DNA of 4,646 nucleotides from IMG/VR virus record IMGVR_UViG_2541047713_000005; one strand, given 5' to 3'. Both the position numbers and the translations under genes were made by a program. Below, piece by piece: positions 1 to 4,412 of this stretch (position 1 is its first letter; every line of letters starts with the position of its first letter). Under the pieces are notes generated by a model, which had not been told where the DNA came from, searched no databases, and saw nothing but the letters and a program-made list of their open reading frames with translations. The stretch comes from a virus (Duplodnaviria; Heunggongvirae; Uroviricota; Caudoviricetes).

Positions 1-1506
1 TCTGCAAGCGCGGCGGCTGCTTCTGCCACTGCATCAGCTAACAGTCAAAAAGCAGCAAAAACCAGTGAAACCAACGCAAAGGTGAGCGAAACAGCGGCTG
101 CGAACTCAGCGAAAGCATCGGCAGCAAGCCAGACGGCAGCTAAAGCAAGCGAAGATGCAGCCAGAGAGTACGCAAGCCAGGCTGCGGAGCCGTATAAATA
201 TGTCTTACAGCCGCTGCCTGATGTGTGGATACCATTTAACGATTCGCTGGATATGATTACGGGCTTTTCGCCGTCATATAAAAAAATTGTTATTGGTGAC
301 GATGAAATAACGATGCCTGGCGACAAGATTGTTAAGTTTAAACGTGCATCGAAAGCAACCTATATTAACAAATCTGGTGTGCTGACAGAGGCTGCCATTG
401 ACGAGCCACGATTTGAACGTGATGGCCTGCTTATTGAGGGGCAAAGAACTAATCTTCTGCTTAATTCAACAAATCCATCTAAATGGAATAAGTCAGGCAA
501 TCTGGAACTCACAGAAATATCCACGGATTCTTTTAATTTTACTTATGGGAGATTTACTGTAAAAGATACTCTTATTGGTCAGACAAGTGCTATTAATATC
601 GTAACGGTTTCTGGCAGTAAAGGGTTTGATGTCACAGGTGATGAAAAATATGTGACCATTTCATGCCGTGTAAGAAGTGATGTTGAAAATGTAAGGTGTC
701 GTTTAAGATTTGAACACCATGATGGTTATACTTACACTTTTTTGGGAGATGCTTACCTCAATTTATCAACACTTGTAATTGATAAAGCTGGTACTGCTGC
801 AGACCGTATTATTGCAAAGGCTGTAAAAGATGAGGTTACTGGTTGGATTTTCTATCAGGCTACAATTAATGCACTAGATACAGAGAGCATGATTGGTGCG
901 ATGGTTCAATACGCTCCTGTAAAAGGTTCAGGCACAGCATCTGGAGACTATCTGGATATCGCAACTCCACAAGTGGAAGGTGGATCAAGTGCTTCGTCAT
1001 TTATTGTAACTGATATAACTGCAAGCACTCGCGCAAGCGATATGGTGACAGTCCCAATCAAGAATAACCTTTATAATCTTCCTTTTACGGTTCTTTGTGA
1101 GGTACATAAGAACTGGTATAAAACGCCAAATGCAGCGCCACGTGTTTTTGATACCGGCGGTCATCAAACCGGAGCGGCTATTATTCTTGGCTTCGGTCGT
1201 TCAACAGATTACGACGGATTTCCTTATTGCGATATTGGAGGAGCTAACAGACGGGTAAACGAAAACGCATCGCTTGAAAAAATGGTTATGGGGATGCGTG
1301 TAAAGTCAGAGCAGTCTACGTGCTCAGTAAGTAACGGGCATATATCCAGCGAAACAAAAACCACATGGTCCTGTATTCAGAACACCGCAATTATCCGTAT
1401 TGGAGGCCAGACTACAGCCGGGTTACGTCATTTATTTGGTCATGTCAGGAATTTCAGAATATGGCACAAGGCATTGACTGATGCTCAGGTGGGGGAGTCA
1501 ATCTAA
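1..1506 (+). CDS. Phage tail fibre protein, 5'-partial (start lies upstream of window); Ala/Ser-rich repeat shaft, distal domain ending in a LamG/concanavalin-A-like signature
   Basis: Frame 1 is open from nt 1 (SASAAAASATASANSQKAAKTSETNAK...) with no stop until TAA at 1504-1506. The 'M' at 82 in the ORF track is an in-frame GTG, not a real start. The N-proximal A/S/T/E/K-rich imperfect repeats are typical of side-tail-fibre shafts. The C-terminus ...LRHLFGHVRNFRIWHKALTDAQV resembles the C-terminal consensus of LamG-like lectin domains (recalled, not searched). GC-rich for the first ~200 nt, AT-rich afterwards. Confidence 0.85.
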   Translation, partial: SASAAAASATASANSQKAAKTSETNAKVSETAAANSAKASAASQTAAKASEDAAREYASQAAEPYKYVLQPLPDVWIPFNDSLDMITGFSPSYKKIVIGDDEITMPGDKIVKFKRASKATYINKSGVLTEAAIDEPRFERDGLLIEGQRTNLLLNSTNPSKWNKSGNLELTEISTDSFNFTYGRFTVKDTLIGQTSAINIVTVSGSKGFDVTGDEKYVTISCRVRSDVENVRCRLRFEHHDGYTYTFLGDAYLNLSTLVIDKAGTAADRIIAKAVKDEVTGWIFYQATINALDTESMIGAMVQYAPVKGSGTASGDYLDIATPQVEGGSSASSFIVTDITASTRASDMVTVPIKNNLYNLPFTVLCEVHKNWYKTPNAAPRVFDTGGHQTGAAIILGFGRSTDYDGFPYCDIGGANRRVNENASLEKMVMGMRVKSEQSTCSVSNGHISSETKTTWSCIQNTAIIRIGGQTTAGLRHLFGHVRNFRIWHKALTDAQVGESI

Positions 1507-1787
1507 TGAAAGATTTAACACTCAAATTTGCCGACAGGGCCGACTTTTCGGCCTTTATGGATAGCACTGGCTATTATGATGACGAGTCGATGCAGGATGA
1601 TATTCTTATTGACGTGATAGGTAACGTGTACAAAGAAACCGGAGAACTGACTGAAGATGGCGAACCGGTATGTGTTAAGGAAGACGGATATTTTGTAAAC
1701 GTGCGCATCATTAATGATTCGCAAATATCGTCATTATTCGATGAATACGTGGTTGCTGTTGAGCATCAACTTCGTGGCTGGATGTGA
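1506..1787 (+). CDS. Hypothetical small acidic protein (93 aa), translationally coupled to the upstream fibre gene; possible fibre chaperone or adaptor
   Basis: ATG at 1506-1508 overlaps the fibre stop (TAATG). Uninterrupted 93-codon frame, acidic composition (many D/E). The downstream gene starts 10 nt after its TGA stop, giving an operon-like arrangement. No family recognised by eye. Confidence 0.6.
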   Translation: MKDLTLKFADRADFSAFMDSTGYYDDESMQDDILIDVIGNVYKETGELTEDGEPVCVKEDGYFVNVRIINDSQISSLFDEYVVAVEHQLRGWM

Positions 1788-1796
1788 GGAAGAAAA

Positions 1797-2837
1797 ATGG
1801 CTACATCGACAGTAATTCCTGATGACATCAAAACGCAAAAATCCGACGTTAGCAAATTAAAAAACGATCAAGGAAGCTACGCAACAAAATTATATGTAGA
1901 CAGCAAAGATAAATTCGTTGGTGACTGCAATGTAATCTATGATCAAAAAACATTGCCAACAACTGGAACTATATTTGGCGGTAAGCTCCGCTTAACTCAC
2001 AGGACTGGTGGAACGGAGGACGCGTATAGTGAACTATATCCCAAAAAAAATATAGATGGTACTAGTAACACAATGGCGCGCCTTAACCTGAACGATAACG
2101 GGACAAACATTTGCTGGGACTTTACCAACCTTTATGGCGGTACGATGATTTTTCCCGGTAGCGGCGGATACCTCAAAATGGGTAACTGCCTTATGTCATA
2201 CAGCAAGCGTGGAAGTAACGCGCTTATTAAATTTGATTACACCGACACATTACAGATCAAATATGCCAATCATGGGTCAACCATGACATTAAACACACAG
2301 GGAACCGCTTATGCTGGTGTTACTGCTCAATTGTGGGGCAACACCAGCCGTCCTGTTGTTTATGAAGTCGGTGTTGATGGTGGCGCTTATATGTTCTATG
2401 CGCAGAAAAATACCGATAACACCTATATGTTAAGCGTTAATGGTGCATGTCATGCCACCGCATTTAACCAGCATTCCGACCGGGATCTGAAAGACAACAT
2501 TCAGGTGATCGATAATGCAACCGACCGCATCCGTAAAATGAACGGCTATACATACACGCTTAAAGAAAACGGTATGCCCTATGCTGGTGTCATTGCACAG
2601 GAAGCTCTGGAAGCAATCCCAGAAGTTGTAGGTTCCGCAATGAAATATCAGGACGGTGCAAGCGGATCGGAAGGTGAAGAAGGTGAACGTTATTACACAG
2701 TAGATTATTCTGGTGTTACTGGCTTGCTTGTTCAGGTAGCCAGAGAGTCAGACGACAGAATAACAGCACTGGAAGAAGAAAACGCAGAATTAAGACAAAG
2801 ATTATCTGCAATTGAGGCGGCGCTTGCGTCTAAATAA
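1797..2837 (+). CDS. Short tail-fibre tip / receptor-binding protein with C-terminal intramolecular chaperone (peptidase S74-type) auto-cleavage domain
   Basis: SD GAGGAAG at 1786-1792, 6 nt before ATG 1797. Residues ~170-215 (AQLWGNTSRPVVYEVGVDGGAYMFYAQKNTDNTYMLSVNGA) resemble the conserved distal segment of P2 gpH / T4 gp37-type fibres (from memory). Residues 227-232 S-D-R-D-L-K (Ser codon at 2475-2477) have the Ser/Lys i,i+5 spacing of the endosialidase-chaperone catalytic dyad. The C-terminal helix ITALEEENAELRQRLSAIEAALASK is typical of this domain. Confidence 0.85.
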   Translation: MATSTVIPDDIKTQKSDVSKLKNDQGSYATKLYVDSKDKFVGDCNVIYDQKTLPTTGTIFGGKLRLTHRTGGTEDAYSELYPKKNIDGTSNTMARLNLNDNGTNICWDFTNLYGGTMIFPGSGGYLKMGNCLMSYSKRGSNALIKFDYTDTLQIKYANHGSTMTLNTQGTAYAGVTAQLWGNTSRPVVYEVGVDGGAYMFYAQKNTDNTYMLSVNGACHATAFNQHSDRDLKDNIQVIDNATDRIRKMNGYTYTLKENGMPYAGVIAQEALEAIPEVVGSAMKYQDGASGSEGEEGERYYTVDYSGVTGLLVQVARESDDRITALEEENAELRQRLSAIEAALASK

Positions 2838-2843
2838 TATTAA

Positions 2844-2864
2844 GGGGCCGAGCGCCCCGTTTTA
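2844..2864 (+). terminator. Putative intrinsic terminator after the fibre operon
   Basis: GGGGC (2844-2848) / GCCCC (2854-2858), an all-GC 5-bp stem with a 5-nt loop, followed by G-TTTT-A (2859-2864), 7 nt downstream of the TAA stop at 2835-2837. The stem is short, hence moderate confidence. Confidence 0.45.
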
Positions 2865-2879
2865 TTGGGTAGGATGAAA

Positions 2880-3173
2880 ATGGATATAACACCTTTCCTT
2901 CATGCGCTTTGTGCTGTGGCTGCGCAGCTACTGATTGGTCTTTTTACCGGGAACTGGGCTTACGGGGCGATAGCCGGTTGTACGTTCTTCATTGCGCGTG
3001 AACACACCCAGGCAGAATATCGCTGGATTGAAATGTTCGGGCATGGCAAGCGAATGAATATGCCGTGGTGGGGCGGTTTTGATCCGCGCGCGTGGGATGT
3101 GGCAAGCCTGATGGATTTTGCTGTGCCGGTGGTGGCGTGTCTGCTGGTCTGGCTGTTGGTTAATCGTGGGTGA
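2880..3173 (+). CDS. Hypothetical small integral membrane protein (~97 aa, 2-3 predicted TM segments)
   Basis: ORF open from TTG 2865; in-frame ATGs at 2874 and 2880. ATG 2880 has an AGGA (2871-2874) 5 nt upstream and is preferred. Hydrophobic stretches FLHALCAVAAQLLIGLF, AYGAIAGCTFFIA and LMDFAVPVVACLLVWLLV. About 55% GC, unlike the AT-rich fibre genes. The antisense ORFs over this region lack such features. Confidence 0.55.
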   Translation: MDITPFLHALCAVAAQLLIGLFTGNWAYGAIAGCTFFIAREHTQAEYRWIEMFGHGKRMNMPWWGGFDPRAWDVASLMDFAVPVVACLLVWLLVNRG

Positions 3174-3183
3174 AAAAAGGTGA

Positions 3184-3312
3184 GCTGTATATGCAACGGA
3201 GGAAGAAACTCCGTTGCTGGAAGCCTGGAAGAAGTATCGGGTGTTGCTGAACCGTGTTGATACATCAACTGCACCTGATATTGAGTGGCCTACGAACCCT
3301 GTCAGGGAGTAA
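3184..3312 (+). pseudogene. tfa: 3' remnant of a tail fibre assembly gene (tfa); no start codon, ~42 codons
   Basis: Frame 1 reads [42 protein letters not shown] directly after a TGA at 3181-3183, with no in-frame ATG/GTG/TTG. It matches the C-terminus of lambda-type Tfa (…[26 protein letters not shown]…, recalled). Relative to copy 2 it carries a 9-nt in-frame deletion. Confidence 0.75.
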
Positions 3313-3326
3313 TCATTGGGATTATG

Positions 3327-3359
3327 CCGCAGCACGTCTTAAGCAAGAACGTGCTGCGG
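3327..3359. terminator. Perfect 11-bp inverted repeat (hairpin) between convergent genes; possible bidirectional terminator or RNA-stability element
   Basis: CCGCAGCACGT (3327-3337), 11-nt loop, ACGTGCTGCGG (3349-3359), which are exact reverse complements. It lies 15 nt after the tfa-remnant stop and 8 nt beyond the methyltransferase stop (TAG, complement of 3367-3369). No U-tract immediately follows on either strand, so it is not a canonical intrinsic terminator. Confidence 0.4.
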
Positions 3360-3366
3360 TTGGATG

Positions 3367-4035
3367 CTATTTTTTCCCTGAAGCGGAAAACATTACTACA
3401 GTACCTTGAACCTTGGTTTTAACATTCTCGAAATGCTCTGAGAGTATATGTGTTAAGCCTTCTTCGGAATCTTTTGTGTTTGAAAAGATGCCTTTCTGAT
3501 TGTAAATGCGCATCAGTTTTTGACCGAAGCTATTGTGCACAACTCCATCGCCAAGAATTGTGGCTCCGTATAGAGTTCCATCGTCAGTTAAGGCCTGCGC
3601 CGCATTGCGTATTACACAGCTTTTTGTAGATATATTTCCAGGCAGGCAGTGAAGAAGGTAAAACATGGAAATGGAATCAAATTGACCATGTAACGCCGCG
3701 GGATAAGGTTCAAAAACATCATGGCTAATTTTATGTTTAATTTTTGATTCCCCAGCCCTTGTAGATGCCGCGTTCAGGCTAGCTTCGTTCAAATCCATTA
3801 AAGATATCAGACTACTCTCAGGTACGTGAGTAAGGTAAAACCCAGTTCCAACACCAATATCCAGATGGTTGTTACCTACATGTTCCAGAAAGTGTGGAAG
3901 AAGGTGTTCCTTTGTAGGACATCCCCATGCAAGCCGATTTGATACTCCCAAAACCCACCAGTCATAAAGCTTTAGGGTAAGTGGTGTGTAAATTTTAGCC
4001 CCATCATCTGTGTTTTTTTTCATTGATTTCACCAT
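3367..4035 (-). CDS. Class I (Rossmann-fold) SAM-dependent methyltransferase, probably not a DNA methyltransferase
   Basis: Motif I LDIGVGTGFY (the hh-D-h-G-x-G-x-G SAM-binding loop), a downstream acidic residue in ISLMDLNE, and a motif II-like FDSISMFYLLHCLP. No D/N/S-PP-Y/F/W motif IV. Stop TAG is the complement of 3367-3369. Two candidate starts: ATG at 4035 (no SD) and ATG at 4023 (GGTGA 5 nt upstream), the latter giving 218 aa and more likely. About 40% GC. Confidence 0.85.
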   Translation of the reverse strand: MVKSMKKNTDDGAKIYTPLTLKLYDWWVLGVSNRLAWGCPTKEHLLPHFLEHVGNNHLDIGVGTGFYLTHVPESSLISLMDLNEASLNAASTRAGESKIKHKISHDVFEPYPAALHGQFDSISMFYLLHCLPGNISTKSCVIRNAAQALTDDGTLYGATILGDGVVHNSFGQKLMRIYNQKGIFSNTKDSEEGLTHILSEHFENVKTKVQGTVVMFSASGKK

Positions 4036-4091: not shown

Positions 4092-4361
4092 ATGCTGCCG
4101 CAGCATAGCGATATTGAAATAGCCTGGTATGCTTCGATACAGCAGGAGCCGAATGGCTGGAAGACCGTCACCACACAGTTCTACATCCAGGAATTCAGTG
4201 AGTATATTGCGCCACTGCAGGATGCTGTAGATCTGGAAATCGCAACGGAGGAAGAAAGATCGTTGCTGGAGGCATGGAATAAATATCGGGTATTGTTGAA
4301 TCGTGTTGATACATCAACTGTACCTGATATTGAGTGGCCTGCAAATCCTGTCAGGGAGTAA
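4092..4361 (+). CDS. tfa: Tail fibre assembly protein, N-terminally truncated (89 aa; corresponds to the C-terminal half of lambda-type Tfa)
   Basis: SD AAGGGG 4-5 nt before ATG 4092. The C-terminus [53 protein letters not shown] aligns closely with the lambda Tfa C-terminus (…[53 protein letters not shown], from memory). Lambda-type Tfa is ~190 aa, so the N-terminal domain is missing. Confidence 0.8.
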
Positions 4362-4412
4362 TCATTGGGATTATGCCGCAGACACGTCGTATGCAGGAAC
4401 GTGCTGCGGTTA
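4219..4412 (+). repeat. Direct repeat copy 2 (tfa 3' end plus degenerate hairpin)
   Basis: Partner of 3178..3362. The hairpin at 4376..4409 keeps both arms but has one bulged A (4382) and a loop that differs at 3 of 11 positions. Confidence 0.85.

Follow-up and report, generated by a model that had tools for sequence, protein, structure and literature searches.

A small acidic phrog_1361 gene directly follows one type of tail-fibre gene in diverse phages and may encode an accessory partner of that fibre

The window analysed here is a 4,646-nucleotide stretch from a tailed virus of the Caudoviricetes (IMG/VR record IMGVR_UViG_2541047713_000005), in which a small open reading frame lies between two fibre genes on the + strand. 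The upstream gene, fibA (1..1506, +), is the 3' part of a gene for a side or lateral 'proximal' tail fibre. It is truncated at the left edge of the window and matches phrog_1419 ('tail protein', E 5e-268); in an identical E. coli prophage the full-length ORF encodes 805 aa. Residues ~75-501 of the part in the window form a conserved module that is always found 5' of the small gene. The NCBIfam model GTA_spike_fiber matches aa 144-345, and a weak PDB sequence match to the head spike fibre of RcGTA (6TB9) was obtained. Pfam searches found no S74 domain in fibA and a weak, sub-threshold Laminin_G_3 match at aa 445-497; together with a published model in which the 64%-identical Gp22 of phage IrisVonRoten is galectin-like, this match weakly suggests that the fibA end is lectin-like. 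The module comprises an exchangeable receptor-binding cassette (223..1350, +; aa ~75-450), made up of a conserved neck (aa 75-140) and the variable domains D1 (aa 141-350) and D2 (aa 351-450), followed by a conserved C-terminal stretch of ~50 aa (1351..1503, +) that ends in ...IRIGGQTTAGLRHLFGHVRNFRIWHKALTDAQVGESI with a LamG/ConA-type last-strand motif. Column conservation in this stretch is 0.77-0.96, the end of the Laminin_G_3 profile is matched, and the motif [HY][IV]RN[FL]R[IV]WH[KR]xL[TS] is kept in environmental relatives with ~30% overall identity.

The small ORF (1506..1787, +) belongs to the phrog_1361 family and encodes a protein of 93 aa (~10 kDa) with a pI of 4.05, 21 D/E against 7 K/R residues and a net charge of about -14. 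An earlier note on this DNA had described a 93-aa acidic ORF that sits between two fibre genes and shares a TAATG stop/start overlap with the upstream one. All of this was borne out: both neighbours match tail-fibre or tail-protein families, and the fibA stop codon TAA (1504-1506) and the ATG of the small ORF (1506-1508) have one base in common. An SD-like GGGGGAG (1491..1497, +), as read from the sequence, lies inside the last fibA codons, 8 nt upstream of the start, and comparable purine-rich sites precede the small-gene ATG in other lineages. At the other end, the stop codon TGA (1785-1787) overlaps an SD-like GAGGAAG assigned to fibB in the same way (1786..1792, +), and an intergenic gap of 9 nt separates it from the fibB ATG at 1797, so the earlier placement of the ORF end 10 nt before the next ribosome-binding site was inexact. 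This junction, CTGGATGTGAGGAAGAAAAATGGCTACATCGACAG, is identical in most of the close loci that reach it, with no more than a few base differences in the others. No promoter-like or terminator-like sites were found at the + strand junctions of fibA, the small gene and fibB. Direct reading of the small protein gave neither a signal peptide nor a membrane segment, and the protein is cytoplasmic.

The downstream gene, fibB (1797..2837, +), encodes the 346-aa second or 'distal' fibre, whose C-terminus carries an intramolecular chaperone, and matches phrog_4563 ('tail fiber protein', E 4e-213). Pfam places a Peptidase_S74 domain at aa 227-278 (E 5.8e-14), S74 is present in all fibB variants tested, and there is a weak PDB match to a long tail fibre distal subunit (6F45). 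The N-terminus of fibB (1797..1886, +), beginning MATSTVIPDDIKTQKSDVSKLKND..., forms a 'plug' with the motif M-x-T-x-T-x-IP-x-DI-x-x-LK. A terminator-like hairpin, GGGGCCGAGCGCCCC and then GTTTTATT, follows fibB at 2844..2866 (+), ahead of a gene for a 97-aa membrane protein (2880..3173, +; phrog_1443, unknown function) that in the phage-21 lineage is found directly 3' of the small ORF.

The small ORF is a true gene under purifying selection, because its dN/dS is 0.24 across 40 alleles and 0.32 across 12 alleles of the phage-21 lineage, its variable sites show a third-position excess (15/14/29 at the three codon positions), and the window-type allele is present in 988 of 5426 complete E. coli genomes (18%). 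The ORF is intact in 80 of 80 closely related IMG/VR loci, which were chosen through a full-length match to it. Absence or a frameshift in syntenic relatives, which would have spoken against the proposals of the earlier note, was looked for in ~150 loci; the gene was absent in none, and a single nonsense allele was seen (locus L121). In E. coli prophages the segment lies between two exchangeable cassettes and is far more conserved than either, as would be expected if it were conserved merely as a DNA 'linker', supplying homology for fibre-cassette recombination, rather than as a gene. However, the reading frame is kept between families at 22-54% protein identity, where DNA homology has gone, and dN/dS is well below 1 with the third-position excess given above. 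The SD and start context are also conserved, and the AF2 fold is confident (mean pLDDT 82). The linker explanation, to which we attach almost no probability, is thus effectively refuted.

Profile searches placed the small protein in a family without an assigned function. It matches phrog_1361 (E 7.1e-46) over residues 1-93 against positions 1-92 of the 92-position profile; the only other PHROG match is phrog_18574, and both are annotated 'unknown function'. For phrog_1361 the annotation also reads 'hypothetical protein', with the tags VOG7707 and FIG00639828 in public phage records. No Pfam profile, Caudo_TAP included, matched at E<=1, and NCBIfam and PDB searches gave no match. The AF2 model has a predicted β-α-α-β-β-α fold and then a low-confidence C-terminal tail (pLDDT 44-68); a fold search with it gave no significant match, and a BFVD structure search returned uncharacterised phage proteins only. 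The tail carries a family-wide motif, P-x-R-x-W-[AS]-COOH, which reads QLRGWM in the window copy. R90 and W92 are invariant, and the R-x-W motif is kept in lineages without fibB. An exhaustive HMM search for the small domain fused to a fibre produced no credible case; long PKD/TPR repeat proteins with several weakly matching stretches came up in it and were rejected as spurious, because Pfam gives them ordinary PKD, TPR and CHAT domains. A P0208 search of viral contigs found nothing. The family includes Gp23 of IrisVonRoten (bas32_0023), but neither PHROG 1361, nor public phage records, nor the BASEL papers give it a function. The BASEL papers model the flanking fibres and do not discuss the small protein, and the literature on DT57C, BF23, AKFV33, rV5, the BASEL phages (both papers) and E. 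coli HS phages holds no functional statement on it.

The most consistent property of the gene is its position. In every relative examined, down to ~30% identity, it stands directly 3' of a fibA-type C-terminal module. The pair was found in lambdoid prophages, the phage 21 type, Drexlerviridae, Queuovirinae, Dhillonvirus, T5-like and rV5-like phages, and environmental contigs at ~30% identity. The fibA module is carried by 220 phage records, and at least 179 records have the small gene at E<=1e-5; both of the inspected records that were missed at this threshold, those of SelmaRatti and SP15, contain a divergent copy. In intact loci fibA and the small gene share 1 or 4 nt, except in SelmaRatti and SP15, two very divergent T5-like phages, where a 1-nt gap is found. 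These observations bear on the possibility that the gene merely hitch-hikes in the fibre operon and serves some purpose other than fibre assembly, for instance in regulation, anti-defence, host takeover or superinfection. Morons, however, are patchy and lineage-specific, whereas the small gene accompanies a single fibre module in phages with unrelated backbones. Its stop/start junction is conserved at very deep divergence, the two genes overlapping everywhere except in two loci; the small gene lacks a separate promoter, and blocking of a receptor would need the signal peptide or membrane segment that the protein lacks. We therefore consider hitch-hiking improbable.

As a rule, trimeric phage fibres depend on a chaperone, which is either intramolecular (S74) or separately encoded, usually just downstream. 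Tfa proteins (lambda/P2/Mu type; PF02413, Caudo_TAP) are of the second kind, and the small gene resembles them in lying immediately 3' of a fibre gene, with which it is co-expressed, and in that its product presumably acts at the C-terminus of a trimeric fibre without an intramolecular chaperone. Here the likeness ends. In agreement with the earlier note, which saw no resemblance to lambda- or Mu-type Tfa, the small protein has no sequence or fold similarity to Tfa: besides the missing Caudo_TAP match, BLASTP against a Tfa remnant elsewhere in the window, which itself matches Caudo_TAP at 1.7e-24, gave no alignment. It is also half the size (93 aa against ~175-195 aa). T4 gp57A and gp38-type fibre chaperones or adhesins share no sequence or fold similarity with it either.

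The C-terminal domain of Tfa co-varies and co-transfers with the receptor-binding tip; the small protein does neither. Among prophages whose small proteins are 94-100% identical, identity ranges over 32-100% in fibA D1 and 21-100% in D2, and receptor-binding domains that are just 21-55% identical occur ahead of such small proteins. The opposite arrangement was found in the T5-like Salmonella phage FGS017, which shares nt ~230-1350 of the window at 94-100% DNA identity, dropping on both sides, and has a small protein only 40% identical to that of the window. DNA identity to FGS017 is 72-76% in the C-terminal stretch at 1351..1503, compared with 94-100% over the cassette; an exchange of the cassette leaves the last ~50 aa of fibA beside the small gene. 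Because fibA receptor-binding domains have been exchanged without the small protein and no co-variation is seen, a dedicated chaperone of the lectin tip in the Tfa sense, one of two roles put forward in the earlier note, is not supported. The small protein (net charge -14) and the final 150 residues of fibA (+5) are oppositely charged, as they are in 21 of 23 lineage representatives. As a correlation across the 23 lineages this complementarity gave r = -0.26 and p = 0.23, so the opposite signs are kept as a weak hint only.

The other proposed role was that of an adaptor joining the two fibres. According to this explanation, the small protein is a virion component at the fibA end, a structural 'knee-cap' whose main job is to hold the fibB plug in a jointed or branched fibre. 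All fibB-type proteins found 3' of a small gene start with the plug motif, and the bodies behind it differ: 346 aa as in the window, 'stub' forms of 234 and 245 aa, 348 aa, or LtfB-like proteins of 573-586 aa. DT57C, which has an LtfB-type body, a different LtfA and no small gene 5' of LtfB, has an LtfB N-terminus unrelated to the plug. Small-protein identity correlates best with identity of the fibB plug (r = 0.87, a raw value that ignores phylogeny and may reflect plain linkage of neighbouring DNA). In a published model of IrisVonRoten, furthermore, Gp24 (fibB) sits on Gp22 (fibA), the proximal fibre, and the small Gp23 bears the authors' label 'tail fiber protein'.

The layout is also that of DT57C LtfA-LtfB, phiEco32 gp14-gp15 and T4 gp34-gp35-gp36-gp37, in which a proximal fibre carries a distal one and the conserved N-terminus of the distal fibre is the attachment module. 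T5-like members of the small-gene family have an LtfB-type distal fibre, and T4 gp35 offers a functional analogy as a small connector with a matched attachment module on its partner, which here is the plug of all fibB-type proteins and is lacking in DT57C LtfB. However, DT57C and phiEco32 have no small gene in between and another LtfB N-terminus and, unlike gp35-like adaptors, the small protein is also found in loci that lack a distal-fibre gene. Although fibB is often found 3' of the small gene, it is missing from whole lineages that keep the gene, namely the phage-21 lineage (~45 loci), rV5-like phages and some environmental Mu-like contexts, in which the next gene encodes a GpP-like baseplate protein. 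In the phage-21 lineage the small gene is under purifying selection without fibB (pS 0.11, dN/dS 0.32). In addition, no 10-kDa protein of this family is resolved or listed in the portions consulted of the virion proteomics of AKFV33, for which only gel bands were analysed, and of rV5. The small protein is therefore not merely an adaptor for fibB; joining the two fibres fails as its sole role and may be a second one. An adaptor as the main function is possible but doubtful in our estimation, and this explanation overlaps with the one we prefer, the two not being mutually exclusive.

Because the gene always stands directly behind one fibre type, help in the assembly or end-capping of that fibre is the most likely function. 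The general idea of an accessory fibre protein is strongly supported, since the gene follows fibA in all lineages examined, and both specific versions of it need correction. We lean, by a modest margin of confidence, towards the small protein being an obligate accessory partner of the fibA-type fibre that serves as an intermolecular assembly factor or cap, and we infer the following mechanism. The partner fibre would be of the type whose C-terminal ~430 residues consist of a domain like the GTA head spike fibre and a LamG/galectin-like end, without S74. Since a stop/start overlap is found in nearly all loci and the SD falls within the final fibA codons, the small gene would be read by ribosomes that have only just completed fibA, and the small protein would therefore be made beside the emerging fibA C-terminal domain. 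There it would attach to the conserved scaffold at the fibA end and not to the variable receptor-binding surfaces, with the conserved C-terminal P-x-R-x-W-A tail, of low confidence in the predicted monomer, as the likely docking peptide. Where fibB follows, the bound protein may take part in the joint that accepts the N-terminal plug.

The small protein would accordingly be an in-trans counterpart of the S74 domains or Tfa of other fibres. Peptidase_S74 (PF13884), known from fibres and endosialidases, and the small gene have complementary distributions: fibB, DT57C LtfA and T5 pb1 carry S74, fibA is the fibre with the small gene after it, and no small gene follows the S74-bearing fibB or DT57C LtfA. 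This suggests that the small protein does the same job in trans. Unlike S74, it is encoded as a polypeptide of its own; it bears no S74 signature, and autoproteolysis is not expected.

More tentatively, and in our view less probable than an accessory role as such, the small protein could be retained on the virion as a universal 'socket', which caps LamG-tipped proximal fibres and takes any plug-bearing distal fibre. If so, at least six phage groups (lambdoid, Drexlerviridae, Queuovirinae, Dhillonvirus, T5-like and related environmental phages) would share a three-part plug-and-socket system in which the proximal tip and the distal fibre can be swapped independently and the joint stays constant.

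Fibres of the fibA type recognise O-antigens and decide host range. They are common in E. coli genomes and among T5-like, rV5-like, Drexlerviridae and Queuovirinae phages that serve as models or therapy candidates. An obligate 10-kDa partner would matter to recombinant production and structural work on these fibres, and a new class of fibre chaperone or joint would help to explain how fibres lacking both S74 and Tfa are assembled. The small gene is widespread among phages and relevant wherever fibre tips are swapped to alter host range. Judging from the sequence comparisons, natural exchanges carry fibA residues ~75-450 only and leave the small partner behind, which suggests a rule for host-range engineering: replace the cassette but leave the resident small gene in place.

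The window spans the tail-fibre end of an E. coli prophage of the lambdoid type; a copy 98.9% identical to it has gpJ and lom upstream and adjoins the yciE/trp region and a truncated ompW. The small ORF (1506-1787, + strand) matched phrog_1361, a family of 'unknown function', over its full length in a profile search (E = 7e-46). As the earlier note had described from the sequence alone, it encodes a 93-aa acidic protein between two fibre genes; the pI is 4.05. The upstream gene, fibA (3' part, 1-1506, +), belongs to phrog_1419 'tail protein', and the downstream gene, fibB (1797-2837, +), matched phrog_4563 and contains the intramolecular chaperone Peptidase_S74 (S74); a terminator-like hairpin (2844-2866, +) comes after fibB. 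The reported coupling through TAATG was also confirmed: the ATG of the small gene overlaps the fibA stop by 1 base, and an SD-like GGGGGAG lies within the last fibA codons, 8 nt upstream. The gap to the next fibre gene is short as reported, but it is not the case that the ORF ends 10 nt before the RBS, because its TGA overlaps the SD-like GAGGAAG of fibB, 9 nt from the fibB ATG.

The small ORF is a real gene. Of 5426 complete E. coli genomes searched by megablast, 988 carry the window-type gene, almost always at full length. The dN/dS ratio was 0.24 for 40 distinct window-type alleles and 0.32 for 12 phage-21-type alleles, and variable sites at codon positions 1/2/3 numbered 15/14/29. A non-coding recombination linker, the alternative on which these figures bear, is highly improbable. 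Among about 150 loci checked for an absent or frameshifted ORF, the sole disrupted copy was a phage-21-type gene (locus L121, 5001-5033) in which a nonsense mutation has changed codon 11 from AAA to TAA. AlphaFold2 with 45 homologues confidently predicted a small alpha/beta fold (mean pLDDT 82), the C-terminal tail being of low confidence. When 1.84 billion representatives were searched exhaustively with an HMM, 85 clusters came back; the ones that we judged genuine consist of free-standing proteins, or fragments, with lengths of ~30-180 aa and mostly of 85-125 aa, and the family is, by this measure, small and self-contained. The few long matches were PKD or TPR repeat proteins, which we regarded as spurious.

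Homologues of the small protein were detected by tblastn in 179 phage records, and the fibA module in 220. The loci inspected covered lambdoid phages (phage 21, its IS-interrupted relative 3W, Tritos and PhiR47_2), Drexlerviridae (tunus, swan01, G3B1), Queuovirinae (JenP1, JenP2), a Dhillonvirus (KarlBarth), T5-like phages (T5_ev219, FGS017, IrisVonRoten, phA11, SelmaRatti, SP15), the rV5-like JeffSchatz, 131 IMG/VR prophage loci and 22 loci from environmental metagenomes, where the small protein has only ~30% identity. The small gene lies directly behind a fibA-type gene at all of them except 3W, with a 1- or 4-nt overlap, or a 1-nt gap in SelmaRatti and SP15. In 3W, the sole break in contiguity, an IS element with three 'mobile element protein' genes (4767-7183) sits at the fibA 3' end, and both the small gene and the gene for the membrane protein are intact. 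The small-protein search detected no small gene behind the most divergent T5-like fibA genes (33-35% identity), but both loci then inspected (SelmaRatti and SP15) have a recognisable 88-aa family member. The S74-bearing fibres of the same phage groups, such as DT57C LtfA, lack the small gene; a Pfam profile search found no S74 domain in fibA. A moron-type function unrelated to the fibre seems unlikely for a gene that keeps this place. We lean towards the small protein being an obligate accessory subunit of the fibA-type fibre. Literature and structure searches, as far as the sources were accessible, turned up neither experiments nor a solved structure nor virion proteomics for it.

At several environmental loci (L170-L174, L167, L172), fibA and the small gene are followed after a 2-nt gap by a Mu GpP-like baseplate gene, so Mu-like tail modules, too, can contain the two-gene unit. 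Genes for fibA and the small protein of the rV5-like or E. coli type are present in several records labelled 'Campylobacter phage' (C11, C12, A12a) and 'Listeria phage', which may reflect wrong labels or host assignments, or contaminated samples.

The proposal of a dedicated chaperone for the lectin tip, taken in the Tfa sense, does not hold, because the small protein is constant while the fibA domains vary. In E. coli prophages it is 94-100% identical, whereas D1 (fibA aa 141-350) is 32-100% and D2 (aa 351-450) 21-100% identical, in several D1/D2 combinations. A lack of likeness to Tfa had been remarked on before, and neither a Pfam profile search nor comparison with the window's own Tfa remnant revealed any. 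The T5-like Salmonella phage FGS017 has a fibA cassette that matches window nt ~230-1350 at 94-100% DNA identity; over the final 150 nt of fibA the figure is 72-76%, and over the small gene it is ~50-60%, with the encoded small proteins 40% identical. Together with the D1/D2 variation, this identity profile shows that natural exchange moves fibA residues ~75-450 and leaves behind the last 50 fibA residues, the small gene and the fibB N-terminus. The shared stretch of ~1.1 kb (window 223-1350, FGS017 locus 3430-4650) has sharp breakpoints at the conserved neck and ~50 codons before the fibA stop, and represents a recent transfer across phage families, with this lambdoid E. coli prophage on one side and T5-like FGS017 on the other.

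The last 50 fibA residues contain the canonical LamG/ConA last-strand motif G-x-V-R-N-F-R-I-W-H-K-A-L-T, conserved as far as the environmental relatives. FibA also has a GTA-head-spike-fibre-like domain (NCBIfam; weak PDB match to 6TB9) and a sub-threshold Laminin_G_3 match at its extreme end. As an accessory subunit, the small protein would be made by coupled translation beside the emerging fibre end and would attach to the conserved scaffold of the LamG-like domain, not to its variable surfaces, serving either as an assembly factor in trans or as a cap that is retained. Its net charge is about -14, against about +5 for the last 150 fibA residues. In 21 of 23 lineage representatives the two have opposite signs, and in the one lineage with an acidic fibA end the small protein is the least acidic; no linear correlation was found across the 23. 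Charge complementarity is thus a weak physical hint.

An adaptor joining the two fibres had also been suggested. As an exclusive role this fails, since the gene is kept in lineages without fibB: ~45 phage-21-type loci (fibA, small gene, membrane protein gene), the rV5-like phages, and the environmental group in which the baseplate gene comes next. The phage-21 lineage is as diverse at synonymous sites (pS 0.11) as the window lineage, with purifying selection still acting on the gene. The C-terminal motif P-x-R-x-W-[AS]-COOH, found across the family, is unlikely to serve fibB, because fibB-less lineages retain it, except in the rV5-like version. Hints of a joint role remain. All fibB-type proteins behind a small gene start with a common plug, M-x-T-x-T-x-IP-x-DI-x-x-LK, on bodies that can be as short as 234-aa 'stubs' (plug, coiled coil and S74 only) or as long as 586-aa LtfB-like fibres. 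DT57C LtfB, a member of the LtfB family with a different LtfA and no small gene upstream, has an unrelated N-terminus. Pairwise identities of small protein and plug correlate at r = 0.87, against 0.28-0.53 for fibA segments, all uncorrected for phylogeny, and the former could reflect simple linkage. In the 2025 BASEL paper, IrisVonRoten Gp24 (fibB) is modelled as attached to the 'proximal fibre' Gp22 (fibA), whose C-terminal domain is galectin-like; Gp23, the small protein, is annotated 'tail fiber protein' but receives no discussion there. A structural socket for fibB, which is compatible with an accessory subunit, is a possibility that we hold more tentatively. Stub fibB proteins (227-245 aa; L018, L038, L072 and other loci at ~6292-6996, L006 at 5292-6029) would have almost no receptor-binding part left after autocleavage.

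The last gene of the fibre module (2880-3173, +; phrog_1443, unknown function) encodes a predicted 97-aa membrane protein, 92-100% conserved among prophages, and has 54% GC against ~43% in the fibre genes. In the phage-21 lineage it directly follows the small gene. Possible roles for the protein are superinfection exclusion and receptor modification. A 140-nt direct repeat of 90% identity (3193-3332 and 4242-4381) covers the 3' ends of two Tfa (Caudo_TAP) gene remnants, both truncated at the N-terminal side, that appear to be left over from earlier stf-tfa modules. Between these remnants lies a gene for a SAM-dependent methyltransferase (3367-4035, minus strand), probably a moron. In NZ_CP018957 (L001), RefSeq gives fibA (14128-16506) as two partial pseudogenes, yet it is one unbroken 805-aa ORF; the split is probably an annotation artefact of the repetitive shaft region.
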